From: an uncultured Bifidobacteriaceae bacterium
GTDB lineage: Bacteria > Actinomycetota > Actinomycetes > S36-B12
Length of the DNA: 24,227 nt
Direction of reading: 5' to 3'
Assembly (NCBI GenBank): GCA_964343995.1
Contig: CAYFLO010000001.1
Coordinates: 4,129-28,355 of the forward strand
Shown here: positions 6,108 to 22,230 of the stretch, piece after piece
Position numbering within the stretch: position 1 is the first letter of the stretch
Layout of the letters: every line of letters starts with the position of its first letter
Made by a program: the position numbers and the translations under genes
Notes under the pieces: model-generated
Databases searched by the model: none
Seen by the model: the letters and a program-made list of their open reading frames with translations, nothing else
What the model was told of the DNA's origin: nothing

Positions 6108-7670
6108 CTATCTCCGGAACAGTCCGCGTCGACGTCCGTCGGCGTCGGAGGCCTGCAACCCCGATGCCGAAGCGGCGGCCGATGCCCCCACGAGCTCGGA
6201 GGTGCGCCACGGCATGAGGTCGCGCCCCGGCAGGCAGACCCGGGCCAGCTCGTTGTAGGCCGGGCCCAGAAGGGGATGGTCGAGCAGGGCCGACATCCGG
6301 GTGAGGTTGGTGGCGGTGAGGACGTCCTTGGTGGCCAGCGGGATGACGCCGACGACCGGGACTCCGAGGCCCGCGGCCAGCACCTGGTCACGTTCCATGC
6401 CCACGTCGGCGACCGACTGGTTGACGACGATGCCGATGCGCTCGCGCGGAACGCCCATGCCGGACTCGTCGACCGGTGCCGTGATCTCGCGCAGAGCGCG
6501 AGCCATGCCCTGCACTGCCGTGGATGCCAGCGTCGTGACGAACAGCACCTCATCGGCCTCCGGCAGGCAGACATCGGCGATGAGCGGATCGAGGTACTGC
6601 ACGCTGGTGTCCATGATGACAACGTCGTACATACGCTTAAGTGAGCGGATGATCGCGCGGTAGAACTCCGCACCCACAGCATCGGCCGTGCGCGGCCGGA
6701 TTGGTGCGAGCACGGTGTCGATGCCCATGAGCTCGTCGCGCACGACGTGGCGGCGGATCGCCTCCTCGTCCCACACCGGCTGGACGCGAATGTTGAGCGC
6801 GGTCGGCATGAACCGCCCGATGAGGCTGGCCACCTGTCCGTCACGGGTGTCCATGTCGACCAGGCACACCGATAGCGGAGCACCGGCATCTCGGGACGAG
6901 GTGGCGATCGCACCGGCCAGGAGCAGCGCGCACGTCGACTTGCCCGAACCGCCCTTGCTCGACGTGACGGTGATGGTCGTCTGACCCGCGGGACGCGGCC
7001 GGGCGAGCAGGTCGGCACTCGCCTGGGCCGGGACGTCGGACTCCGGTACGACCGCATGCGCACCGACGTCGACTGCGTGCGTGGAGGCCGCCGGGGTCGT
7101 GACGACACTCGGTGACGATGGCAGAGTCGCTGCCGCCGCCTCCTGCCACAGTCGCGAGCCGGAGAACCCCTCGCGGGCAAGCGGCGCATCGATATCAGGC
7201 CGGTAGTCGTCGGGGAACTCAACCTCGCCGTCGAGCACCCGACGCATGGTGTCGAGCACCGCACGTCCTCCCTGCACTACCGGCAGGAACGTGTACGGGA
7301 GCCGCTGCGGATCCAGGCGCTGCGCAACCGCCGCCTGCGCGATGGCCGCCTGCAGGACCTCCAGTCCCTCCGGACGCCACAGCGCGACGAACACATGCGC
7401 GCCCGCTGCCGACATCGCCACGATCGCACGGGCGGTGGCGATGAGCTCGGTGTCCGCACTCGGCGTTCCGTCGAGCAGGGAGTCGGAGAAGACCAGGATG
7501 CGCGACTGGGCATCCAGGCGGCCGCCGGACAGCGCATCCCACATCGCTGCGATGGAGCCTTGACGGTCCTGCACCGTCCAGTGCACGCCGTGACCGGCGA
7601 GCAGGTCGCTCACCGTGCGCTCGGCGACGACGATGACCGCGGGGCCCGTACCCGACGACGTCGCGCTCAT
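6108..7670 (-). CDS. CpaE/TadZ-like MinD/ParA-family ATPase with receiver-like N-terminal domain (520 aa)
   Basis: Deviant Walker A KGGSGKST, VDMD, Walker B VVIMDT, IVVNQ, and a C-terminal RRGLFRR amphipathic tail. ATGA overlap at 7667-7670. Confidence 0.85.
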   Translation of the reverse strand: MSATSSGTGPAVIVVAERTVSDLLAGHGVHWTVQDRQGSIAAMWDALSGGRLDAQSRILVFSDSLLDGTPSADTELIATARAIVAMSAAGAHVFVALWRPEGLEVLQAAIAQAAVAQRLDPQRLPYTFLPVVQGGRAVLDTMRRVLDGEVEFPDDYRPDIDAPLAREGFSGSRLWQEAAAATLPSSPSVVTTPAASTHAVDVGAHAVVPESDVPAQASADLLARPRPAGQTTITVTSSKGGSGKSTCALLLAGAIATSSRDAGAPLSVCLVDMDTRDGQVASLIGRFMPTALNIRVQPVWDEEAIRRHVVRDELMGIDTVLAPIRPRTADAVGAEFYRAIIRSLKRMYDVVIMDTSVQYLDPLIADVCLPEADEVLFVTTLASTAVQGMARALREITAPVDESGMGVPRERIGIVVNQSVADVGMERDQVLAAGLGVPVVGVIPLATKDVLTATNLTRMSALLDHPLLGPAYNELARVCLPGRDLMPWRTSELVGASAAASASGLQASDADGRRRGLFRR

Positions 7671-8116
7671 CGTGCACCCCGGCGGCCGGCCGGGCCGTAG
7701 AGGACGAATTCGCGCTGCACGGGCGTGAGCAGCGATGTCGTTACCGGCACCGGTGTCGACGACCACTCAGGCGACGCAGACGAGGCGGATCCGAAAGCGG
7801 CGGGAGCGGGCGTGGGATCCACCAGCATCGTCGCACTCGCGGTGATTGCGGCGCCGACGGGCGCCGCCGGAGCGACGACCGGGTCGGCCATCGCATGCAG
7901 GCTGTCGCGGAAGATCTCCCGGGCCTGCTCGTCGATGACGGCGGCATGGCCGGCGAAGAAGTCGCTGCCGAGGTCGTCCTGGCTCACCGTCGACATCCGG
8001 GCGAGCAGGGCATCGGGATCGGTCGCTCCGAAGACGCCGGTGACCGTGGGCGTCGGGGTCGAGGTGCCACCGAACAGCTCCAGGCCTTCGCGCAGGGCGC
8101 GATCCTGATCGCTCAT
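7667..8116 (-). CDS. Hypothetical Ala/Pro/Thr/Ser-rich protein (149 aa)
   Basis: SD GGAGGAG and ATGA overlaps at both ends. Confidence 0.7.
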   Translation of the reverse strand: MSDQDRALREGLELFGGTSTPTPTVTGVFGATDPDALLARMSTVSQDDLGSDFFAGHAAVIDEQAREIFRDSLHAMADPVVAPAAPVGAAITASATMLVDPTPAPAAFGSASSASPEWSSTPVPVTTSLLTPVQREFVLYGPAGRRGAR

Positions 8117-8550
8117 GACGACTCCTCCAGCCACTCGGCGGGGACGAAGTCCGGGATCGCGATGTCGATGAGCCCGTCCTCGGTGCGCACGGTGAGGGCC
8201 AGCAGGGTGCACGAGGCATCGGTGACCAGATTGAGCGCGCTCACCGGAAGGTCGGCCGCGATCCACGCGTGCCGCGACCAGCGCGCCTGCCACTCGACCG
8301 GAAGCCCGTCGTGGTGCGCGGCCAGGGCGACGTCCAGGAGCGGGCTTCCCGCGCCGACGATCGGGTAGGCGGCGAAGCGGATCGACCCGGCCCGTCCGGC
8401 GACGACTTCGCAGGTGATGGTGATCCGATGGGACGTGGCCAAGCCGGCCGGATCGATGATTCCAACGGGGGCGACAGACGTCACCAGACCCCACCCGCGT
8501 CGCACGAGACACTCTCGTCCGGCGTCGTCGACCTCGATCCGGGTGTCCAT
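8113..8550 (-). CDS. Hypothetical beta-rich protein (145 aa)
   Basis: Strong SD AAGGAGG before ATG 8550 and an ATGA overlap with the next gene. Confidence 0.75.
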   Translation of the reverse strand: MDTRIEVDDAGRECLVRRGWGLVTSVAPVGIIDPAGLATSHRITITCEVVAGRAGSIRFAAYPIVGAGSPLLDVALAAHHDGLPVEWQARWSRHAWIAADLPVSALNLVTDASCTLLALTVRTEDGLIDIAIPDFVPAEWLEESS

Positions 8551-8581
8551 CGTCCTCCTTCGCGGGTCCCCTGTGAGGGCG

Positions 8582-8589
8582 GTATCGGA
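8582..8589 (-). promoter_or_regulatory. Near-consensus pil-regulon -10 element TCCGATAC
   Basis: One mismatch to GCCGAWAC, intergenic, 31 nt upstream of ATG 8550, within ATCGG-T-CCGAT. Confidence 0.55.
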
Positions 8590-8626
8590 CCGATTCGGGC
8601 CTCCTCGCCCCGTGAGCCACGGCATG

Positions 8627-9445
8627 TCAGGCAACGATCGCCCCGGAGGCAGCGCCGAGATACCAGGCGGCCAGGGCCGGTCCCAGCACCAGGCCCACGG
8701 CGGCACCGGCGATGAGGAACGGGCCGAAGGCGATGGCCTGGCGTCGTCGCGCTCGTCCGGCGACGAGCAGCACAACGGCCACGGCACCGCCCAGGAGGAA
8801 GGACGCGAACAGGCCCGAGGCCGAGGCACCGATGCCGACCCAGCCGACGGTGGCCCCCAGGACCGGGGAGAGCTTGACGTCGCCGAGTCCCATGCCGCGC
8901 CCGCGCGTGAGGACGTGGAGCACCCCGGTGACCGTCGTCCAGAGCACAGCGCCGATGAGGGCCCCGGTGACGTTGGACTCCCCCGAGATCAGCCAGGCGA
9001 CCACGAGGCCGACAGCGGTGATCGGGTAGAGCGGGTAGACGATCGCGTTCGGAAGTCGATGGACGTCGAGGTCGATGAGTGCCAGCGCCAGGCACGCGGA
9101 GGTGAGGACGAGGAGGAGTGGCAGGAGACCCGCAGGTCCGGACCCCACGAGGCACCACCACGCCATGGCCCCCCACAGCACACCGTTGGCCAGTTCGACC
9201 AGGGGGTAGCGCGCACTGATACTTGCGCGGCAGGAACGGCAGCGACCGCGCAGGAGCAGCCAGGACAGAACCGGTACCTCATCGCGCGGCGTGATGCCCG
9301 CACCGCACGACGGGCACGCCGACCGCGGGCGTACCACTGAGCGGCCCTGCGGCACGCGATGGATGACGACGTTGAGGAAGGACCCCACGATCAGGCCGAG
9401 GAGGCCGGCGGCCACCACGGCGATGAGCGCCAGGTCGGTGGTCAC
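8627..9445 (-). CDS. pilD: Prepilin peptidase / N-methyltransferase (A24A)
   Basis: GSFLNVVIHR, PRSACPSC, RGRCRSC, ISARYPLVE, catalytic IDLDVHRLP and GMGLGDVKL, and FGPFL. Confidence 0.96.
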   Translation of the reverse strand: MTTDLALIAVVAAGLLGLIVGSFLNVVIHRVPQGRSVVRPRSACPSCGAGITPRDEVPVLSWLLLRGRCRSCRASISARYPLVELANGVLWGAMAWWCLVGSGPAGLLPLLLVLTSACLALALIDLDVHRLPNAIVYPLYPITAVGLVVAWLISGESNVTGALIGAVLWTTVTGVLHVLTRGRGMGLGDVKLSPVLGATVGWVGIGASASGLFASFLLGGAVAVVLLVAGRARRRQAIAFGPFLIAGAAVGLVLGPALAAWYLGAASGAIVA

Positions 9446-10347
9446 GAGGAGCCGCCCACGCCGGCCATGACAGCACGCGCGAGGTCGGCACGTGCCTGCT
9501 CCAGTCGCGATTCCAGGTCGGCGATGAGCCGGTGCAGCTCGGCCACATCGGTCGAGTCAGGCGCACCGGTGTCCGCGGTCGTCGTGGCGCGCGGGGAACC
9601 GAGGTCGACCGAGCCGAACTGCTCGGGGACGACGTAGTGGTCGGACTGTTCGACCGGCACCGACACCGCCTCCGCGCGTCGCTGCAGGACGACGAGCGCG
9701 GCCAGGTGCACCGCCTCGGCACGCGTGAGACCCAGGCGTCCGGCGACCGCATCGACACTTCCGCCACGACCGGCCTCGGTGAGGAACGCCGCGACCTCGG
9801 GGGCGTCGCCGGACACGTGGCGTCCGGAGACCACCAGCCCGGTGTCGACCGGGCTGCCCTGCAGCGTGACGGTGCGCCAGGTGGCCTCCGTGCGCTCGCG
9901 ACGCACCTGCACCAACGCGCGAAGTTCGTCGAGATCGACCGGAAGGGCGCACTGCTCGCCGGTCGTCACGCCCTCCTCGAACTCCACGCGCACCGAGCGC
10001 AGGGTCGAGAGGGCCCCGACACCGGCGACGAGAAGCTCTTGATGGATCGCAGCGAGGGCATCGATGGCGATGAGTCCCCGCTCGACCGCGACGCGACCGA
10101 TCGGACGACCACTGTCCGCGGTGGAGAGGGCCAGGGCTCGGATGTCGTCCTCGTTCACCTCGCCCTGCGCGACGATGCGGTCGGTGATGGACGGGGCATA
10201 GTGGTCGAGCTCGACCGCGTAGGCGCAGCCGTCGACGGTGAAGACGCGTGCCCGATGTCCGCTGCGCCGATCGGTGACGACGATCGCCCCGGTGCGTCCG
10301 CGTGCCACATCCCACAGGGCCTGCCCCGACGTGCGTCCGATCCTCAT
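9442..10347 (-). CDS. DUF4388-like protein with MshEN-like helical repeat and C-terminal coiled coil (301 aa)
   Basis: Pattern TGAIVVT...VFTVDGCAYAV...IGRVAVERGLI...VEFEEG recalls DUF4388. ELHRLIADLESRLEQARADL coiled coil. Overlapping start/stop codons at both ends. Confidence 0.6.
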   Translation of the reverse strand: MRIGRTSGQALWDVARGRTGAIVVTDRRSGHRARVFTVDGCAYAVELDHYAPSITDRIVAQGEVNEDDIRALALSTADSGRPIGRVAVERGLIAIDALAAIHQELLVAGVGALSTLRSVRVEFEEGVTTGEQCALPVDLDELRALVQVRRERTEATWRTVTLQGSPVDTGLVVSGRHVSGDAPEVAAFLTEAGRGGSVDAVAGRLGLTRAEAVHLAALVVLQRRAEAVSVPVEQSDHYVVPEQFGSVDLGSPRATTTADTGAPDSTDVAELHRLIADLESRLEQARADLARAVMAGVGGSS

Positions 10348-11051
10348 GAGGCGGGTATCGGCTGGCTGGTGACCCAGGGGGCCTGGCGCTCATGGATCGG
10401 GCAGGGGGCCGCTCCCCCGTGGTCGACGGTGCCCACGTCGAATCCGGGACGACCGGTGCAGCCCGGACTCCACTCCTGCCGCAGCAGTCGACCGCCGGAC
10501 TCCACGCTCGACAGTGACATGCCGCCACCGGGACCGCCAGGGCCGACATGGTCGATGTGGACAACATGCTCAGGGATGACGTCGCGGGCCACCGCGCCGT
10601 CACGCACGACAAGGGAGTAGTGACGTACCGAGAGGTCACCGACGACCATGACGGTGGCGGCGCCGGACTCGCGCACGGTGAGGCTGCAGCGCGAGCCGAG
10701 GTAGGACGCCAGGTCGCGACGCTCGCCGGTGCCGAGGGTGAACGTCGTCGCCTCGCCGCCCGCGTACGCCCGATAGCCCAGTCGCGGGTCATAGGCCTTG
10801 CCCACGTGCTCGCGCACGGCGCGTTCGGCCTCGTCGAAGGTCCCTGCCCGCCCTTCGATGAGCAGGCGTGGCAGTCCGTCGACCGCGGTCATGCGATCGC
10901 AGAGCTCCCACCCGTACGACGCCACATGGCGCTGTCCGTCGACCATGGCACTCGTTCCGCTGATCCGGGCCACGAGGTGGTCGGTCAGCCACGTCCACTG
11001 CAGGATCCCGGACTCGTCGGTGAAGACCCACGGGATGGGGGTCGCGGTCAT
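10344..11051 (-). CDS. Hypothetical multidomain protein (235 aa), possible Sm-like domain and C-terminal Cys/His motif
   Basis: ATGA overlaps at both ends and host-like codon usage. Product is unknown. Confidence 0.75.
   Translation of the reverse strand: MTATPIPWVFTDESGILQWTWLTDHLVARISGTSAMVDGQRHVASYGWELCDRMTAVDGLPRLLIEGRAGTFDEAERAVREHVGKAYDPRLGYRAYAGGEATTFTLGTGERRDLASYLGSRCSLTVRESGAATVMVVGDLSVRHYSLVVRDGAVARDVIPEHVVHIDHVGPGGPGGGMSLSSVESGGRLLRQEWSPGCTGRPGFDVGTVDHGGAAPCPIHERQAPWVTSQPIPAS
10355..10362 (-). promoter_or_regulatory. GCCGATAC -10 element, 7 nt before ATG 10347
   Basis: Plus-strand GTATCGGC with exact 7-nt spacing to a start that has no SD. Confidence 0.6.
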
Positions 11052-12208
11052 GCCGGCTGCAGGAGCGCGGTGAGTCCGTCGTCCGCGCCCAGGGCCCCGC
11101 CCAGGCTCTCGCCCATGGCCGATACCGATCGGGTGACGGCGGCGCCGACGGCCTTGGGCAGAACCCCCAGGGCCTGCGCCACGTCCTGGCGGGTGCGCTC
11201 GCCCCAGAAGGTGAGGTAGGTGCAGGCCAGCGCCATCGCATCGGCCCGCAGCGCGCCGCTGCGATCGCGACGCAGGCACGAGTCGAGTACGGCGCGGGTG
11301 AGCACCTGTGCGGTCGCCCGCGACAGGCACGCATCATCCGCTGTCTCCGCGGCGATCAGACCCACCTGGTCGCACGACACTGACTGCGCATCGTCGTCGT
11401 CGGCGCGGCTCACCAGGGACCTCGGCACGCGCAGGGCGTGGGTGGTGGCCACGGCCTGGCGGCGCTTACGGACGTCACCCACCGTGGTGCCCGTGAGCTC
11501 GGCGAGCTCGGCGTCGGTGGTGCGGCGATGCTGGGTCGCCAGCGACTCGTCCTCCAGCCGGCGGAAGCGCAGCTGGTCATCGATCGTGGTGCGACCGTAC
11601 GCGGCCCGCGCCGCATCCTGCGGCCACTTGCGCAGCTTGCCCAGCATGAACACCAGGAAGGTGAGAGTGCCGTTGCGACCGAGCCGGTCGGCGTCATAGC
11701 GGTCGGCGTGATCGCTGATGAACAGGTACATCATCGAGCGCACGTCGTCGTCATCGATGAGATCGAGGTCGGCCATGAGCTTGCGGCGAATCGCGAAGGT
11801 GCGCGGGTACAGCCAGTCGACCGCGGCCATCACCAGCTCACCGAAGAGTCCGTCCGGGATCGCGTCCACGTTGCGGAAGGGCACACCGGTCTCCACCCGC
11901 ATGTTGTGGGCGGCGACGTCGTTCTCCTGGCACCACTGGGCAATGTCGTCGCGCGCCTGCGCACCCATGCCCTGCGGCACCCAGATGCGGTGCTGGCCAT
12001 CGCTCCACCGCCGGGTCGCAGCCTCGTAGGGAAGCGCGGTGACGATGTCGTGCGTCGAGACGGCCGCGTCACCGTCCCAGTGCACGCGATCGCACACCAT
12101 CGCGGGAGCCAGCGCGAGGATCTCCCCCTCGTCCATGCCGCGGACGACCAGGCGCGGGATCCGGCGCCCCTGCCGGTTGCTCGCCGTGATGAGCAGGTCC
12201 TCGCTCAT
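11048..12208 (-). CDS. Divergent group-3 (WhiG/FliA/SigF-like) sigma-70 factor with extra N-terminal domain (386 aa)
   Basis: Region 2-like DVRSMMYLFISDHADRYD...TFLVFMLGKLRKWPQDAAR, region 3-like RRTTDAELAELTGTTVGDV, and region 4-like YLTFWGERTRQDVAQALGV. SD GGAGGAAG. Confidence 0.7.
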   Translation of the reverse strand: MSEDLLITASNRQGRRIPRLVVRGMDEGEILALAPAMVCDRVHWDGDAAVSTHDIVTALPYEAATRRWSDGQHRIWVPQGMGAQARDDIAQWCQENDVAAHNMRVETGVPFRNVDAIPDGLFGELVMAAVDWLYPRTFAIRRKLMADLDLIDDDDVRSMMYLFISDHADRYDADRLGRNGTLTFLVFMLGKLRKWPQDAARAAYGRTTIDDQLRFRRLEDESLATQHRRTTDAELAELTGTTVGDVRKRRQAVATTHALRVPRSLVSRADDDDAQSVSCDQVGLIAAETADDACLSRATAQVLTRAVLDSCLRRDRSGALRADAMALACTYLTFWGERTRQDVAQALGVLPKAVGAAVTRSVSAMGESLGGALGADDGLTALLQPA

Positions 12209-12528
12209 GCGGCTTCCTCCGACACCATCGGCGCCACGAACATCGGCTCCCACGGCTCGAGTTCGTCGAGAACGTCGACCAGACCGCCGACGGCCATCTG
12301 CGCCTCCGGCTCACCGGCGCGGATCGCCGCAGGGGCACCCAGGAGCGCGCCCAGACGAACGCTGCGCCCCTCCGGGCTCACTCGGTCGTCGATCACCCGT
12401 AGCCAGCCGAAGGTGGCCAGGAGCCGCTGGAGCCGCTCCTGCAGGAGAGCCGAGGACTGCTGGGTCGCCTGAACCGCCAGCACCACCTCGACGGGTGCCT
12501 CCACTGAATTCACCGCACTGCCGTTCAT
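12205..12528 (-). CDS. Hypothetical protein (~107 aa), first gene of the accessory operon
   Basis: High GC3 codons and an ATGA overlap with the sigma gene. Start codon uncertain (12528 or GTG 12513). Confidence 0.65.
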   Translation of the reverse strand: MNGSAVNSVEAPVEVVLAVQATQQSSALLQERLQRLLATFGWLRVIDDRVSPEGRSVRLGALLGAPAAIRAGEPEAQMAVGGLVDVLDELEPWEPMFVAPMVSEEAA

Positions 12529-12548
12529 GAAGAGCCCTATCTGTAGTC

Positions 12549-12603
12549 CCCTGTATGACAGGGAACACGAAGGATTCAACCCTGTCCAGTAGACCCCTAC
12601 TGG
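12549..12603. promoter_or_regulatory. Two inverted repeats upstream of the sigma operon
   Basis: CCCTGT-ATG-ACAGGG (12549-12563) and CCAGTAG-ACCC-CTACTGG (12586-12603) in a relatively AT-rich intergenic region. Confidence 0.45.
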
Positions 12604-12671
12604 CTTTACTCAGGCTTGGCCCACTTTTGTCGCGGCACTGGCTGCGGACGCCCCGGGTAAACCCGAGCGCG

Positions 12672-12721
12672 CAAAGAGCGACGGCGGCCGCTCCTCCCTC
12701 GCGGGGGGAACGACCGCCGTC
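12672..12721 (-). terminator. Intrinsic terminator-like hairpin after pilA
   Basis: Minus strand GACGGCGGTCGTTCC...GGAGCGGCCGCCGTC (15-bp stem with 2 GU pairs) followed by GCTCTTT, 16 nt after the pilA stop. Confidence 0.8.
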
Positions 12722-12737
12722 GGCGGTTCGCTGGGGA

Positions 12738-13199
12738 CTAGGCGATCGCGTACACGCCCGCCGCGCCGGCCGTGGCCGAGCAGGTGTTCGTGGTCGAGGT
12801 CGGATCCGGCTTCAGGCCGCCGTTCGCCGAGTCGTACGTGAACTGGTTCTTGGACTCCGCATTGCAGCCCACGATCGTGTAGGTGCCGGCGGAGGAGTTC
12901 ACCGTGATCGTGTAGGTGTTGCCCGTCGACAGCTTGGGCTGGTCGACCGAGGCGAGCGCCTTGGCCTGAGCGTCCGTGGGGTAGGCGCTCTTGGTCGTGT
13001 AGTAGGTCTCCATGAACTTGGCGATGCCGTTGATGTCGGACTTCACCGACGCGTCACGGGCGGCCGAGCGCTGGTTGAGGAACACCGGGATGGCGATGGC
13101 CGCCAGGATGCCGATGATGGCGACGACGACGAGGAGTTCGATGAGGGTGAAGCCCGACTCCCCGTCCTCCCGGCGCTGCTTGAGCGAACTGAGCATCAT
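12738..13199 (-). CDS. pilA: Major type IV pilin
   Basis: Class III signal peptide KQRREDGESG/FTLIELLVVVAIIGILAAIAIP, two C-terminal Cys, own promoter and terminator, and SD TGGAG. Confidence 0.93.
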   Translation of the reverse strand: MMLSSLKQRREDGESGFTLIELLVVVAIIGILAAIAIPVFLNQRSAARDASVKSDINGIAKFMETYYTTKSAYPTDAQAKALASVDQPKLSTGNTYTITVNSSAGTYTIVGCNAESKNQFTYDSANGGLKPDPTSTTNTCSATAGAAGVYAIA

Positions 13200-13260
13200 T
13201 GTGATCTCCACTGCGTCGAGCCCCTTGCGGGGGCGGCGGGCGCGACGCCCTCCGCGGTGG

Positions 13261-13268
13261 GTATCGGC
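13261..13268 (-). promoter_or_regulatory. GCCGATAC -10 element of pilA
   Basis: Plus-strand GTATCGGC in the pilC-pilA gap, 61 nt upstream of ATG 13199. Confidence 0.7.
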
Positions 13269-13284
13269 CCGAAATCCGCCCCGG

Positions 13285-14502
13285 TCACTTCACCAGGTCG
13301 AAGATCTTGAAGATCGGCAGGTACATCGCGATGATCATGCCGCCCACGATGGCGCCCAGGCCCAGGATCATGACCGGCTCAATGAGGGCCATGAGCTGCT
13401 CCGTGGTGGCCTCGACCTCCTGGTCGTAGAAGTCGGCCACCTTGCCCAGCATGGTGTCCAGGGCGCCGGCGTCCTCGCCCACGGCGATCATGTGGACGAC
13501 CATGTCCGGGAAGATCGGGTGCTTGGCCAGCGGCCGGGCCATGCCCGAACCCTGGCGCACGCTCTCCTTCACGGCCGCCACCGCATCGGCGATCACCACG
13601 TTGCCCGCCGTCTCGGCCACGACGTCGAGAGCCGACAGGATCGGTACTCCCGCCCCCAGCAGCGATGACAGATTGCGCGTGAACCGGGCCAGCGCCACCT
13701 TGGCGAACAGCGGCCCGAACACCGGGAGCCGGAATCGCAGCGGCTCCACGATGCGCCGGATGCGCTCACTGCGCCGGTTGCGCCGGTAGAGCACCGTTCC
13801 GACCACGATCGCGGTGATGAGGGGCAGCAGCACGAACGGGTTGCGCAGGGTGTCCGAGACCCCCACGAGGATCCGGGTCGGCAGGGGCAGCTCGCCGCCG
13901 AAGGACGCGAAGAGGCCGGCGAACACCGGCACGACGAACAGCAGCATGCCGGTGGTGATGATCACGGCGATCACCGCGACCGCCACCGGGTAGGTGAGGG
14001 CCGACTTGATGCGCGAGCGCAGTTTGACGTCGGCCTCGAGGGACTCGGCGACCTGCACGAGGGTGGCGTCCAGGAAGCCACCGACCTCGCCGGCCCGGAC
14101 CATCGAGACCATGACGAGCGGGATCTCGCGATGCTCACCGAGGGCATCGGACAGGGGCGAGCCCTCCTCGACCGCGCGTCGCACCTGACCCAGGATCTCC
14201 CCCAGCCGTCGACTGGTGACCTGCTCCTCCAGGATCGCCAGGCATCTCAGGATGGGCAGGCCTGCGGCGAGCATGGTCGCGAACTGACGGCTCACAACCG
14301 CGAGGTCCTTCGTCGTCACCCGGCCACGCCCGAAGCGGATCTCGCGCTTGAGGCCAACGTTCGCACGGTCGACGGCGATGGGCGTCAGCCCCAGGCCCTT
14401 GACGCGTGCGATCGCGTCGGACTCGCTCTGCGCCGCCATCCGGCTCTCGACGAGTCGACCGTTGCGCGCCCGCGCCTTGACGAGGTACTCAGCCTGTGGC
14501 AT
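13285..14502 (-). CDS. pilC: Type IV pilus platform protein PilC (T2SS F family)
   Basis: RQFATMLAAGLPIL, GEVGGFLD, SALTYP, GEDAGALD, EPVMI and YLPIF motifs. Confidence 0.96.
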   Translation of the reverse strand: MPQAEYLVKARARNGRLVESRMAAQSESDAIARVKGLGLTPIAVDRANVGLKREIRFGRGRVTTKDLAVVSRQFATMLAAGLPILRCLAILEEQVTSRRLGEILGQVRRAVEEGSPLSDALGEHREIPLVMVSMVRAGEVGGFLDATLVQVAESLEADVKLRSRIKSALTYPVAVAVIAVIITTGMLLFVVPVFAGLFASFGGELPLPTRILVGVSDTLRNPFVLLPLITAIVVGTVLYRRNRRSERIRRIVEPLRFRLPVFGPLFAKVALARFTRNLSSLLGAGVPILSALDVVAETAGNVVIADAVAAVKESVRQGSGMARPLAKHPIFPDMVVHMIAVGEDAGALDTMLGKVADFYDQEVEATTEQLMALIEPVMILGLGAIVGGMIIAMYLPIFKIFDLVK

Positions 14503-15751: not shown

Positions 15752-17427
15752 GCGACCACCCGCAGCACCTCGGCCACGGTGGTGACGCCCTGCGCCACCC
15801 GAAGCCAGCCGTTGTCGCGAAGCGATCGCATGCCCTGATCGAGGGCGACGCGACGCAGCTCGTCGGATGTGGCCCGACGGGCGGTGAGATCAGCGAGCTC
15901 CGGTGACATCGGCATGACCTCGTGGAGGGCGAGGCGCCCGCGATACCCGGTGCCGGCACAGCTCACGCACCCGACCGGCTCGAAGATCGTCGGCGTGACG
16001 TCGGCGGGCACGACGAATCCGACCGCGGCGAGATCCGCAGGAGTCACCTGCGACGGGCGCTTGCACGTGGGGCACAGGCGGCGCGCAAGGCGCTGCCCGG
16101 TGGCGCACTGCAGCGCCGAGCCGACGAGGAACGGCTCGATCCCCATCTCGGTGAGGCGGGTGACCACACTCGGAGCGTCGTTGGTGTGCAGCGTGGTGAG
16201 GACGAGGTGGCCGGTGAGGGCGGCCTCGATGGCGATCTGTGCGGTCTCGTGGTCGCGGATCTCGCCGATGAGGATGACGTCGGGATCGGCCCGCAGGATC
16301 GCACGCAGCGACGACGCGAAGGTGAGACCGGCCTTGCCGTTGACCTGCACCTGATTGATGCCCGGGATGCGGTACTCCACCGGGTCCTCGACCGTGACGA
16401 CGTTGATCTGCGGCCGCGCCACCGCGTTGAGCGTTGCGTAGAGCGACGTGGACTTGCCCGACCCCGTCGGTCCGCTCACGATGAGCATGCCGTAGGGGCG
16501 CTGGTAGGCCGAGCGCCAGCGATCGAGGTCCGACGGAGTGAAGCCCAGGTCGGGCAGCCCCAGCTGTGCCGAGGAGTTGTCCAGGATGCGCATGACGATC
16601 TTCTCGCCCCACACGGTGGGCAGGCAGTTCACGCGCAGGTCGACCTTGCGGCCCTGCGACGACACCGACAGGCGACCGTCCTGCGGACGCCGCTTCTCCG
16701 CGATGTCCATGTCGCACATGATCTTCAGCCGGGAGATGATCGCGGTCTGGATCTCCTTGGGAGCCGGGGTCATCTCGGTGAGCACGCCGTCGATCCGGAA
16801 GCGGATGCGGATGCTGCTCTCGGTGGGCTCGACGTGGATGTCGGAGGCCTGGTCGGAGATCGCCTGGTTGAGCAGCAGGTTCACGTAGCGCACCAGCGGC
16901 GCGTCGGTCGTCGAGGCAACCGGTGCGGCCAGGTCGATCGTCGGCTCGTCGTCGAGCATGTCGCGCACGAGTTCGCCCAGCTCGGCCTCGGCCCGGTACA
17001 CCTGGTTGAGGCGGGTCACGAGGTCCTGCTTGAGCGCGCAGGCGAACCGCACCGACCGGCGCGTCACGGCCTGCAGGTCGTCGCGCACCTGCCAGTCCAT
17101 GGCCGTCGTGGTGTCGGAGGCGACGATGAGCACCGAACCCTCCGAGCGGACCGGAACGACGCCGTAGCGACGGGCCTGCTCCGGCGACAGCAGCGCCAGG
17201 CAGGCCGGATCCAGCGAGGCGTTGAGGATGTCGACGTACTCCATGCCCGCCGCGGTGACCGTCGACCGCAGGACGTCATGCGACGAGACCAGGCCGGCAT
17301 CGACGAGCGCCTTCACCGCACCCTGGGCACCACCGGTGGCGTGCGCGGCCTGCACCTGTTCGGGCGTCACGAGCCCGTCGCGCAGGAGCACGTCCAGTGC
17401 GCTGGCGGGTTGGTCCTGAATGGTCAT
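15748..17427 (-). CDS. pilB: Extension ATPase PilB (GspE/PulE family)
   Basis: ASDIHVEP, RRPQDGR, GPTGSGKST, EDPVEY, ALTGHLVLTTLHTN, and Zn tetracysteine CPTC...CVSCAGTGYRGR. ATGA overlaps at both ends. Confidence 0.96.
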   Translation of the reverse strand: MTIQDQPASALDVLLRDGLVTPEQVQAAHATGGAQGAVKALVDAGLVSSHDVLRSTVTAAGMEYVDILNASLDPACLALLSPEQARRYGVVPVRSEGSVLIVASDTTTAMDWQVRDDLQAVTRRSVRFACALKQDLVTRLNQVYRAEAELGELVRDMLDDEPTIDLAAPVASTTDAPLVRYVNLLLNQAISDQASDIHVEPTESSIRIRFRIDGVLTEMTPAPKEIQTAIISRLKIMCDMDIAEKRRPQDGRLSVSSQGRKVDLRVNCLPTVWGEKIVMRILDNSSAQLGLPDLGFTPSDLDRWRSAYQRPYGMLIVSGPTGSGKSTSLYATLNAVARPQINVVTVEDPVEYRIPGINQVQVNGKAGLTFASSLRAILRADPDVILIGEIRDHETAQIAIEAALTGHLVLTTLHTNDAPSVVTRLTEMGIEPFLVGSALQCATGQRLARRLCPTCKRPSQVTPADLAAVGFVVPADVTPTIFEPVGCVSCAGTGYRGRLALHEVMPMSPELADLTARRATSDELRRVALDQGMRSLRDNGWLRVAQGVTTVAEVLRVVA

Positions 17428-18554
17428 GCGACCTCCTTCGATCCGGCGCGCCGCAGCGCGACCCGCAGGTCCGTCGGCCTCGTCGCGACCTTCTCCGCCT
17501 CCGCCAGGGTCACGCGACCGGACATCACCAGGTCGACGAGGTCCTGCTGGAAGGTGCGCATGCCGTAGAAGCCGCTCTCGCTGAGGATCTCCTCCAGGTC
17601 GGCCGTCCGCTCGGCATCGGCGATCGCGTCCTGCACGCGGGTCGTGCCCACGCACAGCTCCAGTGCCAGGGCGCGACGACCACCCGTGGGCAGCAGGCGC
17701 TGGCAGACCAGGGCCCGCAGGGTCTCGGCCATCGACCGGCGCATCTGCTGCTGCTCGTCACGGGGGAAGAGGTCGACCACGCGGTTGACCGCGTCGACGA
17801 CAGTCTTGGCATGCAGGCTGGTGAGCACCAGGTGGCCGGTCTCGGCGGCCTGCAGGGCGGTGCGCATCGTCTCGGCGTCACGGATCTCACCGACGAGGAT
17901 GACGTCGGGGTCCTGGCGCATGCCGGCACGCAGGGCGCTGGCGAAGTCGACGGTGTCGGTGAGCACCTCGCGCTGGCTCACCGAGGCCTGGTCGTCATGA
18001 TGGACGAACTCGATTGGGTCCTCGATCGTGAGGATGTGGCAGCGGCGGGACCGGTTGATGCAGTCGACCATCGACGCCAGCGTCGTGGACTTGCCGGACC
18101 CCGTCGGTCCGCTCACGATGATGAGGCCGCTCTCCAGGAGCGCCAGGCTGCTCATGACCGGCGGGAACCCCAGGTCGCCGAGGGCGGGCACATGGGCGCG
18201 CACGTGACGCAGCACCATCGCGGTCGCCCCTCGCGTGCGGTACGCATTGCCGCGGAACCGCTCCCCGGTGTCGTCGACGTACGCGAAGTCGACCTGCCCG
18301 TCGCGCAGGAGGGTCTCGCGGTCCGCGGCCGCCACGAGCGCCTGCTCGACGAGGAAGGCGGCCTGCCGCTCGGTGAGGACGGGGAATCCGGTGGGACGGA
18401 GGTCGCCGTCCACCCGCACGGCCGGCACCGCCGACGCCTTGATGTGCACGTCCGAGGCACCCATCGCCACGGCCTGGGCCAGCAGGTCGGCCAGCCGCAC
18501 CGGGGCATGGGGCGCCGCGGCGAGGACGAGGTCGGGACCGGTGGGCAGCACCAT
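17424..18554 (-). CDS. Second PilT/PilU-family ATPase
   Basis: ASDVHI, GPTGSGKSTT, TIEDPIE, MRQDPD and AAETGHLVLTSLH. The AIRNLIRE position reads RVQDAIAD. Confidence 0.92.
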   Translation of the reverse strand: MVLPTGPDLVLAAAPHAPVRLADLLAQAVAMGASDVHIKASAVPAVRVDGDLRPTGFPVLTERQAAFLVEQALVAAADRETLLRDGQVDFAYVDDTGERFRGNAYRTRGATAMVLRHVRAHVPALGDLGFPPVMSSLALLESGLIIVSGPTGSGKSTTLASMVDCINRSRRCHILTIEDPIEFVHHDDQASVSQREVLTDTVDFASALRAGMRQDPDVILVGEIRDAETMRTALQAAETGHLVLTSLHAKTVVDAVNRVVDLFPRDEQQQMRRSMAETLRALVCQRLLPTGGRRALALELCVGTTRVQDAIADAERTADLEEILSESGFYGMRTFQQDLVDLVMSGRVTLAEAEKVATRPTDLRVALRRAGSKEVA

Positions 18555-18561
18555 GGATGGT

Positions 18562-18585
18562 GTTTCGGCTCGACCGCGCCGATAC
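18562..18585. promoter_or_regulatory. Back-to-back -10 elements GCCGAAAC (minus, 18562-18569) and GCCGATAC (plus, 18578-18585)
   Basis: Each lies exactly 7 nt before its ATG (18554 for pilT2, 18593 for pilM), and neither start has an SD. Confidence 0.75.
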
Positions 18586-18592
18586 GGACACC

Positions 18593-19780
18593 ATGAAGCT
18601 GCGCAAGCGCTCGACCCAGGCCTGGGAGCCCAGCCGTCGACGCCGGGCCGCCCGACCCGATCACGGGGCGGTCGTGGGTCTGGACATCGGTGCCACCCAG
18701 GTGAGCGCGGTGCGCCTGCGCAAGAAGGGCTCCGGTTACACGATCGCCCACGCAGCGCAGGTGCCGCTGGAGCCCGGTGTCGTGGTCAACGGCCAGGTCA
18801 CCGATCCCCGCGCCCTCGCCCGCGCCCTGCGCACCCTGTGGCGCAAGGGCCGCTTCGGCACCCGTCGGGTGTGCTTCTCCCTGGCCGCCCCCAGCGTCAT
18901 CACCCGTCAGGTCGACCTGCCGTGGATGCCCGAACCGGACTTCAGCCTGGCGCTGCGCTACCAGGTGACCGACGCCCTCCCCGTCGACCTGGCCACTGTC
19001 GAACTCGGTCACCACACCCTGGGTGACTACGTGCGCACCGAAGGGTCCGGCCAGTCGATGGAGATGAGCCGAACCCTCCTGGTGGCCTCCCCCACCGACG
19101 CGATCGTCGACACCGCCGAGTGCCTGCGCCGGGCCAACCTCGTGCCGATCGCCGCCGACTCCCCCGCCTTCGCGCTCATCCGTGCGGCCTGCGGAGGGAC
19201 GGTGTCCCAGACGGGCGCCCTCGCCGCGATCGTCGATGTCGGTCACGACACCGTGACCGTCGTTCTCCATGTCGACGGGCAGCCGCGGTTCCTGCGCAGT
19301 GTGGCGAGCACCGGAGCCGGATCGGCCACCGCGACCATCGCTGAGCGGTTCGGCCTGTCGGCTGCTGACGCCGATGAGCTCAAGGTCCGTATCGGTCTGC
19401 GAGGTCCGGTGCCGGTCATCACTCCGCTGCGAGAGTCGGGCATCTTCGGCGGTCTGCCGCTGGCGCCCGAGGCCGACGCCGATCCGCGCACGCAGGCCGT
19501 CATGACCCTGGCGTCGACGTGGGCCGGGCGCGTCATCGGCGAGGTCCGCAACTCGCTGGACTACTACCTGGCCGGCCACCCCGAGGAGTCCCTCTCCGAG
19601 ATCGTCCTCACCGGGCGCGGTGCCCTCATCGACGGCTTCGACAGCCGTCTGCAGACCGAGCTGCGCACCCCCGTCCGGGTGATCAGCCTGGACGACGTTG
19701 CCCGCGGCCCGCGTCGCGGCGTGCGCGTGGAGCATCCGCACTCGCTGGCGATCGCCGCCGGCCTGGCGATGGCCTCCTGA
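18593..19780 (+). CDS. pilM: Type IV pilus assembly protein PilM (actin/FtsA-like)
   Basis: VGLDIGAT, AAIVDVGH, EVRNSLDYY, IVLTGRGA and AIAAGLA. ATG 18593 is preferred over the track start at 18557. Confidence 0.93.
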   Translation: MKLRKRSTQAWEPSRRRRAARPDHGAVVGLDIGATQVSAVRLRKKGSGYTIAHAAQVPLEPGVVVNGQVTDPRALARALRTLWRKGRFGTRRVCFSLAAPSVITRQVDLPWMPEPDFSLALRYQVTDALPVDLATVELGHHTLGDYVRTEGSGQSMEMSRTLLVASPTDAIVDTAECLRRANLVPIAADSPAFALIRAACGGTVSQTGALAAIVDVGHDTVTVVLHVDGQPRFLRSVASTGAGSATATIAERFGLSAADADELKVRIGLRGPVPVITPLRESGIFGGLPLAPEADADPRTQAVMTLASTWAGRVIGEVRNSLDYYLAGHPEESLSEIVLTGRGALIDGFDSRLQTELRTPVRVISLDDVARGPRRGVRVEHPHSLAIAAGLAMAS

Positions 19781-21634: not shown

Positions 21635-21642
21635 GCCGATAC
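21635..21642 (+). promoter_or_regulatory. GCCGATAC -10 element, 7 nt before ATG 21650
   Basis: Shares CGCGCCGATACG (12 nt) with the pilM promoter. No SD. Confidence 0.7.
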
Positions 21643-21649
21643 GTCGATC

Positions 21650-22012
21650 ATGGCCGGCCTCCTCATCCCTGCGGACGTCCACGAGGACAGTTCCCTGGTC
21701 ACGCTGAGGGGTGCGTACCTGGATGCGGTCGGGGCCTTCGTCATGGCACCCGTGGACGTCATCGACGTGCTCGATGCCAACGGACATCCCAGCGGCATGT
21801 CGGTCTGGTTCACCGAGGACGGCGAGAGCCGTGCCCTGCCCCTCAATGTCGAGGTCTCGCGCCTCGTGGCGCCGTGGCGTGTTCATGGAGTGGCCCTCAT
21901 CACCCGTGGGGACGTCAATGACCCTGATGCCCTGGACCTGCCGGCATCCGATGTGGAGGTGCTGCGGGAGCTGCTCGCGCTCACCGAGCCATTGACTGCG
22001 CCGGAGGTCTGA
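21650..22012 (+). CDS. DUF3846-like protein (120 aa)
   Basis: Pattern ...MSVWFTEDGESRALPLN...SRL...VHGVALIT recalls the DUF3846 EEG..LP.N...I.G..L signature (recognised from memory). Confidence 0.6.
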   Translation: MAGLLIPADVHEDSSLVTLRGAYLDAVGAFVMAPVDVIDVLDANGHPSGMSVWFTEDGESRALPLNVEVSRLVAPWRVHGVALITRGDVNDPDALDLPASDVEVLRELLALTEPLTAPEV

Positions 22013-22154: not shown

Positions 22155-22162
22155 GCCGAAAC
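22155..22162 (+). promoter_or_regulatory. GCCGAAAC -10 element of the minor pilin operon
   Basis: 16-nt exact identity GTCGAGCCGAAACACC (22150-22165) with the pilT2 promoter (reverse complement of 18559-18574). Confidence 0.75.
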
Positions 22163-22230
22163 ACCCCGGGGAACCGCAATTCGACCCGGGTCCCCTGACG
22201 GTGTCGGACACGCGAGCGCAGGAGGCCCGG

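Follow-up and report, generated by a model that had tools for sequence, protein, structure and literature searches.

A divergent group-3 sigma-like protein encoded within a type IV pilus cluster of uncultured Actinomycetota, and the -10 promoter box associated with it

Introduction

The control of type IV pili by sigma factors of the sigma28 family is a recent finding in the Actinomycetota (PMC8325347, PMC12871210). In Rubrobacter, the type IV pilus cluster contains WhiG-type promoters (PMC8325347). These promoters, which consist of T(A/C)AA or CTCA, a spacer of N16-17, and GCCGATAA or GCCGAACT, drive several operons in the pilus clusters there, and they have been predicted to do likewise in several further families of actinobacteria (PMC8325347, PMC12871210). 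The central CGA of the actinobacterial WhiG-family -10 elements, GCCGATAA and GCCGAACT, is conserved (PMC12871210). In the open complex formed by sigma28 of Pseudomonas aeruginosa, two residues, S224 and Q228, make base-specific contacts with the -35 element (PMC12784957). Here we describe a stretch of 24,227 nucleotides (contig CAYFLO010000001.1, positions 4,129 to 28,355; hereafter the window, referring to its full length) that carries a type IV pilus cluster and, within it, a gene that we designate sigL in this analysis. The source of the window is a 2.05-Mb metagenome-assembled genome (MAG) of an uncultured actinobacterium, 78% complete and with a G+C content of about 70%. An earlier note on the same DNA, made from the sequence alone, had described the product of sigL as a divergent WhiG/FliA-like sigma factor. 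We think it probable that SigL is a functional alternative sigma of group 3 (the sigma28 or SigB/SigF lineage), dedicated to the pilus cluster and largely independent of a -35 element.

Results

Fold and domain order of SigL

The AlphaFold model of SigL, with a predicted local distance difference test (pLDDT) value of 80, has an alpha/beta domain at amino acids (aa) 1-118 and helical domains thereafter. The gene and the segments that code for the individual domains are the following, with positions given in the window.

11048..12208, minus strand: sigL, whole open reading frame (ORF), 386 aa, a divergent group-3 sigma-like protein
11855..12208, minus strand: N-terminal domain, aa 1-118; a beta-hairpin, then a ferredoxin-like beta-alpha-beta-beta-alpha-beta core at aa 35-115
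11531..11854, minus strand: sigma2-like helical domain, regions 2.1-2.4/3.0, aa 119-226
11423..11530, minus strand: sigma3-like helix-turn-helix, aa 227-262; Pfam Sigma70_r3
11324..11422, minus strand: acidic sigma3-sigma4 linker at the position of the sigma finger, aa 263-295; pLDDT below 50
11090..11323, minus strand: sigma4-like domain, aa 296-373; recognition helix at aa 350-361, rich in Ala

In Foldseek searches, residues ~119-373 aligned end to end with WhiG, SigD, FliA, SigF and SigB (probability 1.0, E-values of 6e-6 to 1e-4). WhiG was the top match (6.5e-6), followed by SigD (1.1e-5), FliA (2.3e-5) and SigF (2.9e-5); a structure search had been proposed in the earlier note as a check of the assignment, and its outcome is a match to group-3 sigmas. 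The matches in the PDB were sigma28/FlgM, WhiG/RsiG and SigB open complexes. When a HMMER profile of the SigL family was run against the PDB, only sigma chains were found (SigF, E-value of 0.004; WhiG, 0.006; SigA1, 0.11; then FliA and SigB).

The individual domains were also recognized. The sigma2-like domain (aa 119-226) lies inside the whole-length matches to group-3 factors, and collinear hhalign and HMMER alignments connect it to WhiG and SigF. Residues 162-206 were aligned by hhalign with regions 2.2-2.4/3.0 of WhiG-family sigmas, and by HMMER with SigF and WhiG chains, which recovers the region 2 pattern noticed before by eye at residues ~155-200. Likewise, residues 228-247 were aligned by hhalign with the region 3 helix-turn-helix, placed before at residues ~228-246, and residues 331-366 with region 4.2. 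In structural comparisons with VIA-align, the sigma4-like domain matched domain 4 of SigH (Z of 9.8, root-mean-square deviation of 1.8 Å over 75 aa) and region 4 of SigE on -35 DNA (Z of 9.4). The linker, aa 263-295, is gapped and variable in the family alignment. With SigL alone as the query, three curated models gave sub-threshold matches in the correct order: FliA_WhiG (TIGR02479) at aa 203-271, Sigma70_r3 at aa 224-264 and r4_2 at aa 332-363. Among 27 family members, Sigma70_r3 was detected in 20 (E < 0.1; best, 8e-7) and r4_2, with the helix-turn-helix of region 4.2, in 21 (E < 0.1). The FliA_WhiG model matched all 27 (best E-value of 3e-7, all far under the cut-off), and the SigB/SigF/SigG model TIGR02980 matched 17 (best, 2.8e-8). 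As modelled, SigL has the group-3 succession of sigma2, sigma3, linker and sigma4. When the sigma2 part (aa 116-232, supplied with the family alignment) was co-folded with the clamp-helix region of beta-prime (residues 300-440), neither chain folded well and the score, 0.22, stayed under the mark of 0.32, an outcome that speaks neither for nor against an interaction; the beta-prime was taken from a genome of the same genus, the rpoC gene of the window's own genome being cut at a contig end within the clamp helices.

Conservation of the SigL family

More than 200 homologues of SigL, with 47-70% identity, were found in uncultured Nanopelagicales-like Actinomycetota. Nearly all are labelled 'hypothetical protein' in public sources, a fate that the earlier note had foreseen under automated annotation. 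An alignment of 27 homologues (47-68% identity) has 83 invariant columns, and the mean column identity of the family alignment is 59%. Because so many columns are invariant at this divergence, the conservation of SigL, as judged from the alignment, is not due to chance, and the number of homologues together with the mean column identity suggests that the family is under purifying selection. The invariant residues are densest in region 2.2-2.4, and the most conserved stretch extends from Met159-Met160-Tyr161 through Gly205-Arg206. The ATG of sigL overlaps the stop codon of the small ORF upstream (ATGA); an alternative GTG at 12253 would add 15 aa, and the starts of the nearest homologues resemble the ATG form. 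In five MAGs (G020, G005, G058, G096 and G111), a single in-frame stop (TGA, TAA or TAG) interrupts an otherwise full-length sigma-like gene or pilC; these stops may be assembly errors or occasional pseudogenes.

Region 4.2 and subfamily placement

The recognition helix of SigL, LPKAVGAAVTRS, is Ala-rich; its counterpart in the WhiG proteins encoded in related pilus clusters, as aligned by hhalign, is SESRACQVHGRA. The positions equivalent to S224 and Q228 of sigma28 are Lys352 and Ala356, so that the residues known to contact the -35 element are not kept, and an Arg and a His that stand beside these contacts in WhiG are replaced by Ala and Val. The view of region 4.2 as eroded, with a recognition helix that lacks the usual residues, is therefore borne out at these positions, within a domain whose fold is retained.

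The placement of SigL among the group-3 subfamilies is less clear-cut. By hhalign, the family matched the SigB/SigF/SigG sigma of the same genome with a probability of 87% (E-value of 4e-6), which is better than the match to eight cluster-encoded WhiG proteins from related loci (38%, 3e-4) or to a single WhiG (5%). SigL and WhiG share about 15-20% identity, too low for a trustworthy tree. Of the original description, the divergent group-3 sigma fold stands, on the strength of the Foldseek matches and of the FliA_WhiG model in 27 of 27 members, and so do the extra N-terminal domain and the eroded region 4.2; whether SigL is nearer to sigma28 or to SigB/SigF is not settled by sequence.

A sigma28-type -10 box in the pilus cluster

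When the pilC-pilin spacers were aligned, CCGA[AT]AC proved invariant in every locus (33 of 33), at a distance of about 55-60 nucleotides (nt) upstream of the pilin start codon. The box of the pilin promoter is (G/T)CCGA(A/T)AC, with an extended consensus of TCGG(T/G)CCGA(A/T)AC. It resembles the -10 elements GCCGATAA and GCCGAACT, with an invariant central CGA, and SigL is its putative reader. GCCGAWAC (W, A or T) occurs seven times in the window; the number expected is 0.96, and a count of seven was never attained in 100 shuffles. The 2.05-Mb assembly as a whole has 99 copies (P of about 2e-4 for seven in the window). Six of the seven are in the sense orientation just upstream of genes, namely the pilin gene, the pilT2-pilB operon, pilM, a 120-aa ORF, a minor pilin gene and DUF4388-pilD. 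Four are placed exactly 7 nt before an ATG that has no Shine-Dalgarno sequence, which is the geometry of a leaderless mRNA. Moreover, four of the five best position-matrix sites genome-wide are inside the cluster. The boxes of the window are listed below.

13261..13268, minus strand: GCCGATAC, pilin promoter; its CCGA[AT]AC part is invariant in 33 of 33 loci
18562..18569, minus strand: GCCGAAAC, 7 nt before the ATG at 18554 (second PilT-like ATPase, then the pilB-pilT-pilC operon)
18578..18585, plus strand: GCCGATAC, 7 nt before the ATG at 18593 (pilM operon)
21635..21642, plus strand: GCCGATAC, 7 nt before the ATG at 21650 (120-aa ORF)
22155..22162, plus strand: GCCGAAAC, upstream of a minor-pilin-like gene at 22201
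10355..10362, minus strand: GCCGATAC, 7 nt before the ATG at 10347 (DUF4388, then pilD); a box stands at the same position in six other loci
8582..8589, minus strand: TCCGATAC, after pilD, upstream of an unknown gene and a ParA/MinD-like gene; a box stands at this position in about 14 loci
11118-11125, plus strand: GCCGATAC, antisense, inside the 3' part of sigL

The antisense copy inside sigL is probably a chance occurrence and, with lower probability, an antisense start. In related loci, 64 box hits are sense and 7 antisense, and the same junctions recur. Seven related loci have a box upstream of the small ORF-sigL operon, which suggests that sigL is autoregulated there; in this window no box was found before the sigL operon. 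In sister families, seven pilus clusters without sigL showed no box between pilC and the next genes. A scan of positions 8000-13400 for sigma70-type promoters and terminators found none, and a look for RNA-seq runs covering 11000-13400 turned up none.

At 18552-18595, the divergent leaderless starts at 18554 (minus strand) and 18593 (plus strand) are 38 bp apart and their boxes 8 bp apart, so the two promoters must overlap physically. Outside the cluster, high-scoring boxes were noted in the same genome at C51:136 (plus), C276:1354 (minus) and C86:5304 (minus); one is 14 nt before the gene for an RbpA-like RNA polymerase-binding protein, and the other two lie before genes whose products, of 271 and 596 aa, have signal peptides. 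All three may belong to the regulon or be chance hits.

An exhaustive search also found relatives of about 500 aa, 25-30% identical to SigL, that have both the N-terminal domain and the sigma part in common with it. The boxes around these relatives, as read from the sequence, support a link between the architecture and the promoter type outside the pilus cluster. Two of the relatives, P0130 and P0138 (contigs L002 and L003), have an additional N-terminal extension of about 140 aa, and are neighboured by SbcCD-like, prepilin-peptidase-like and intein-bearing FtsK-like genes. On L002, about 9 of 13 GCCGAWA-type boxes are less than 100 nt upstream of a called gene and in the sense orientation. 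The region could be a self-transcribing island.

Canonical WhiG and the -35 element

We called a canonical FliA/WhiG where the FliA_WhiG model gave a hit at E <= 1e-40. Such a protein is encoded by 10 of the 45 genomes that carry sigL, and by 9 of 28 if only carriers with a completeness of 90% or more are counted; no hit at this threshold was found in the other 35 carriers (19 of the 28), which include two single-contig genomes. The best cross-hit of the model in the window's own genome is a SigB/SigF/SigG sigma. Where canonical WhiG occurs, mostly in one genus, its gene belongs to the same cluster as sigL, 4-5 kb away from it, and the FliA_WhiG model gives the protein 230 bits. We regard SigL as a distinct family because it coexists with bona fide WhiG in some genomes.

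The loci with and without WhiG differ in the region upstream of the box. An exact GGTTCA was found 16 nt upstream of the pilin -10 box in 11 of 11 loci that encode a cluster WhiG, often also at the promoter after pilD; at locus L022, with both WhiG and SigL, the promoter is GGTTCA-N16-TCCGAAAC. Conversely, none of the 14 loci without WhiG that have at least 5.3 kb of flank, this window included, has an exact GGTTCA box. The expectation that the promoters would have no conserved -35 element fits these data, in that the -10 box is invariant and GGTTCA is confined to the canonical-WhiG loci. The simplest account is that canonical WhiG uses the -35 and -10 elements, that SigL uses the extended -10 element alone, and that the -35 box decayed where WhiG was lost.

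In loci L021-L049, a variant box, (G/T)CC(A/C)ATAC, which has no central CGA, was seen before the canonical whiG gene (for example at ~11700-11720 of L022, minus strand). Such a variant could point to two classes of promoter or to a hierarchical relation of the two sigmas.

The N-terminal domain of SigL

Folded alone, the N-terminal part of SigL gave a pLDDT of 90; the alpha/beta extension of about 120 residues that had been suspected is thus a separate domain, of 118 residues. Of its columns, 29 are invariant, with Arg and Trp frequent among them, and its conservation is on par with that of the sigma part. The best matches among solved structures (VIA-align, PDB) had Z values of 6-7, the best being 7.0, and were to MzrA, acylphosphatase and ACT domains; the best AlphaFold DB cluster was the DUF4162/DrrA C-terminal domain of ABC-2 ATPases (E-value of 2e-3). 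Searches of the PDB, the AlphaFold DB clusters and the ESM Atlas, where SigL has its own model, returned the generic ferredoxin-like fold alone and no specific relative. Because the matches are of this generic kind, no function can be derived from them, and a sensory or auto-inhibitory role for the domain is speculation.

Gene order and distribution of the pilus cluster

On the minus strand, the genes of the cluster follow one another in the order second PilT-like ATPase, PilB (with a MshEN domain), PilT, PilC, pilin, small ORF, sigL, 235-aa ORF, DUF4388, PilD, unknown gene and ParA/MinD-like ATPase. Genes for PilM/N/O-like proteins and minor pilins are on the plus strand from 18557. The neighbours of sigL referred to in the text are these.

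17424-18554, minus strand: second PilT-like ATPase
12738-13211, minus strand: pilin
12205..12528, minus strand: small ORF of 106 aa (about 136-150 aa in other loci), with a stop codon that overlaps the sigL start
10344..11051, minus strand: 235-aa ORF; its start overlaps the sigL stop
9442-10347, minus strand: stand-alone DUF4388 protein, with a weak match to the MshE-type cyclic di-GMP motif (E-value of 0.046)
6108-7766, minus strand: ParA/MinD-like ATPase with an N-terminal extension

The order pilB-pilT-pilC-pilin-small ORF-sigL-orf235-DUF4388-pilD was found in 40 of 42 loci; these are from species-representative genomes, all uncultured, of Candidatus Nanopelagicales or classed as Actinomycetes or Actinomycetota MAGs. 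Both the DUF4388 gene and the ParA/MinD-like gene are conserved in related loci. In nearly all loci, the small ORF separates the pilin gene from sigL; searches of Pfam and the PDB found no relative of it, the best PDB match of its family profile having an E-value of 0.04 (HPr), and we consider its product a candidate partner or anti-sigma of SigL. The 235-aa ORF follows sigL in 40 of the 42 loci, with 42-51% identity, is limited to genomes with sigL, and has no match in Pfam or NCBIfam. Within its own family of genomes, sigL is present in 45 of 151 genomes and in 10 of 16 genera, and, in a sample of 24 of these genomes, only alongside a closely related PilC; it is missing from the pilus clusters of sister families, whose PilC proteins show 52-55% identity.

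Two RNA features were noted around the pilin gene. In the 5' leader of the pilin gene (13196-13260, minus strand), and in loci L013-L052, there are two conserved hairpins between the -10 box and the Shine-Dalgarno sequence. By eye, the first stem varies in sequence and retains its complementarity; the second is CACCCC...GAGGGG(T). RNAalifold recovered short parts of the hairpins, with 6 pairs, of which 3 have compensatory changes. Directly after the pilin stop and ahead of the small ORF-sigL operon (12660-12737, minus strand), a hairpin rich in G+C precedes GCTCTTTG, and the two together resemble a terminator that is leaky. Rfam at its gathering thresholds gave no match in the whole window.

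Discussion

If SigL is a working sigma, as we favour, its sigma2 and sigma4 domains would dock on core RNA polymerase as those of other sigma70-family factors do. Regions 2.3-3.0 would read the extended sigma28-type -10 element, as suggested by the consensus of the promoters, and transcription would start about 7-8 nt downstream of the box. Four units, DUF4388-pilD, pilT2-pilB-pilT-pilC, pilM and the 120-aa ORF, would then be expressed from leaderless mRNAs, and the pilin mRNA would have a structured leader instead. Region 4.2 appears to have kept the sigma4 fold and lost the residues with which sigma28 contacts the -35 element. Because these contacts are lost, and because the promoters of loci with sigL only have no conserved -35 element, initiation is probably -35-independent. 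At a guess, the N-terminal domain makes up for the upstream contact that was lost, or it gates SigL by way of the two proteins whose translation is coupled to that of sigL.

A more far-reaching reading, which we hold to be less likely than not, is that SigL represents a new architecture, in which a group-3 sigma without -35 recognition by region 4.2 has gained a ferredoxin-like domain, either as a substitute contact with upstream DNA or polymerase or as a signal input via the two coupled proteins. In abundant uncultured Actinomycetota of freshwater, such a factor may have taken the place of WhiG at the head of a pilus regulon that is self-contained and largely leaderless, and the older relatives of about 500 aa may run similar regulons in other islands.

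Several observations weigh against SigL being a dedicated sigma. All curated sigma models score far under their cut-offs: FliA_WhiG gives SigL 13.3 bits against a cut-off of 189.6, TIGR02980 (cut-off of 234 bits) has no match at E <= 1, and Pfam Sigma70_r2 has no match in SigL itself. In the Pfam check that the earlier note had called for, r3 and r4_2 gave sub-threshold matches in SigL and matches at E < 0.1 in most family members, and r2 gave none in SigL. Two glycines that are invariant in region 2.2 of WhiG are Met160 and Phe163 in SigL; their replacement had been spotted correctly, under the wrong number (region 2.1). When the alignment is anchored on WhiG, the -10-reading residues Y76, R80, R82 and D87 correspond to F187, K191, R193 and D198, and when it is anchored on SigF the correspondence shifts by one residue and the Arg-x-Arg is lost, so that the apparent conservation depends on the alignment. 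The claim, at the level of residues, that the -10 readers of sigma28 are conserved was dropped on account of this shift. In addition, at 78% completeness a canonical sigma28 could have been missed in the window's genome, and in the subclade that has it the cluster WhiG could be the true reader of these promoters. Finally, the carrier loci and genomes are related and not independent, so that their distribution is a pattern and no statistical proof.

It is possible, and in our judgement unlikely, that SigL is derived from a sigma and no longer acts as one, being instead a mimic that titrates an anti-sigma, in the manner of the sigma-like part of PhyR, or an accessory factor that binds DNA or polymerase, with GCCGAWAC read by WhiG or another sigma. 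The silence of the region 2 models and the replaced region 2.2 glycines and 4.2 contacts would agree with this, as would the genus in which a canonical WhiG is encoded 4-5 kb away and the promoters have a full -35/-10 pair. The translational coupling of sigL to two uncharacterised proteins also recalls the members of partner-switching systems, which are often so coupled. However, the 35 of 45 carriers without canonical sigma28 keep the invariant pilin box, so some sigma must read it. Moreover, conservation is strongest in region 2.2-2.4, which touches the polymerase and the melted DNA and which in a mimic would be expected to be relaxed, and the three sigma domains and the linker are all kept in order.

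We consider it improbable that SigL is a true sigma with other targets, the box being the site of a different regulator or an RNA element, and its position in the cluster reflecting co-regulation. It is true that the profile scores better against SigB/SigF/SigG than against WhiG, that SigB/SigF promoters differ from the box, and that the sigL operon in this window has no box. Nevertheless, the geometry is that of a -10 element and unlike that of an operator, four boxes being 7 nt away from a leaderless ATG and 64 of 71 hits having the sense orientation; seven pilus clusters that lack sigL also lack the box between pilC and the next genes, and distant relatives of sigL are surrounded by boxes as well. 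As for sigL being what is left of a duplicated whiG that decays or has lost its function, the very low similarity to curated sigma models and the few relatives with one in-frame stop are outweighed by the ORFs, which are intact and constant in length across hundreds of metagenomic sequences, the 83 invariant columns, the confident AlphaFold domains and the conserved position and translational coupling, and we rejected this reading, which the conservation data contradict, as having next to no chance of being right.

SigL is best described as a probable sigma derived from the sigma28/group-3 lineage that is encoded within a pilus cluster, has an added domain and serves promoters that are probably -35-independent. 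Surveys that seek recognizable WhiG homologues would probably miss the family, because no curated sigma model scores its members anywhere near the cut-off and public records call them hypothetical proteins. If our reading of SigL as a cluster-dedicated sigma is true, widespread uncultured actinobacteria of freshwater and soil possess a pilus cluster that is served by a sigma and a promoter code of its own, and pilus genes and possible DNA-uptake genes could be predicted from sequence in these organisms. SigL would also be a natural example of a group-3 sigma that does without -35 contacts and has an N-terminal domain added to it. The loci with WhiG and its paralogue, set against those with the paralogue only, would capture the replacement of one sigma by another while it is under way, together with the decay of the -35 box.

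Of the known systems, WhiG of Streptomyces venezuelae and Rubrobacter radiotolerans (PDB 6PFJ and 7LQ4) has the three-domain group-3 fold in common with SigL, and the presence of GCCGA(A/T)AC at several operons of the sigL pilus cluster is a further likeness. In contrast to WhiG, to which it is about 15-20% identical (13 bits against the 189.6-bit cut-off), SigL has an extra N-terminal domain of 118 aa, has the region 2.2 glycines and the -35 contacts of region 4.2 replaced, and is encoded within the pilus cluster itself, between pilin and pilD. No RsiG-like partner was recognized beside sigL in Pfam and PDB searches, which did not use FlgM or RsiG profiles; two other coupled ORFs are found there. 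With FliA/sigma28 (Escherichia coli, 6PMI; P. aeruginosa, 9WSM), SigL shares the overall fold, and the window's boxes share the CCGA core of the -10 element with its extended GC; aromatic and basic residues of SigL can be aligned to Y76, R80 and R82 in the WhiG-anchored alignment, the mapping of region 2.4 being alignment-dependent. Unlike FliA, SigL is not linked to flagella, and S224/Q228 are Lys/Ala.

SigB, SigF and SigG (SigF, PDB 1L0O; SigB, 8X6G) provide the best PDB profile match (SigF, 0.004) and the best single-sequence hhalign match (87%, 4e-6). They differ in their surroundings, no anti-sigma kinase or STAS-type antagonist being recognized adjacent to sigL. The -10 element of SigB/SigF type is also different from the CCGA core of the promoters associated with sigL. 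Lastly, PhyR resembles SigL in joining a sigma-derived fold to an additional alpha/beta domain, and in the possibility of a non-sigma role. The sigma-like domain of PhyR is a sigma mimic, of the extracytoplasmic function (ECF)-like type with two sigma domains, and its receiver domain is at the C-terminus. SigL, in contrast, keeps all three group-3 domains and is most conserved in region 2.2-2.4.

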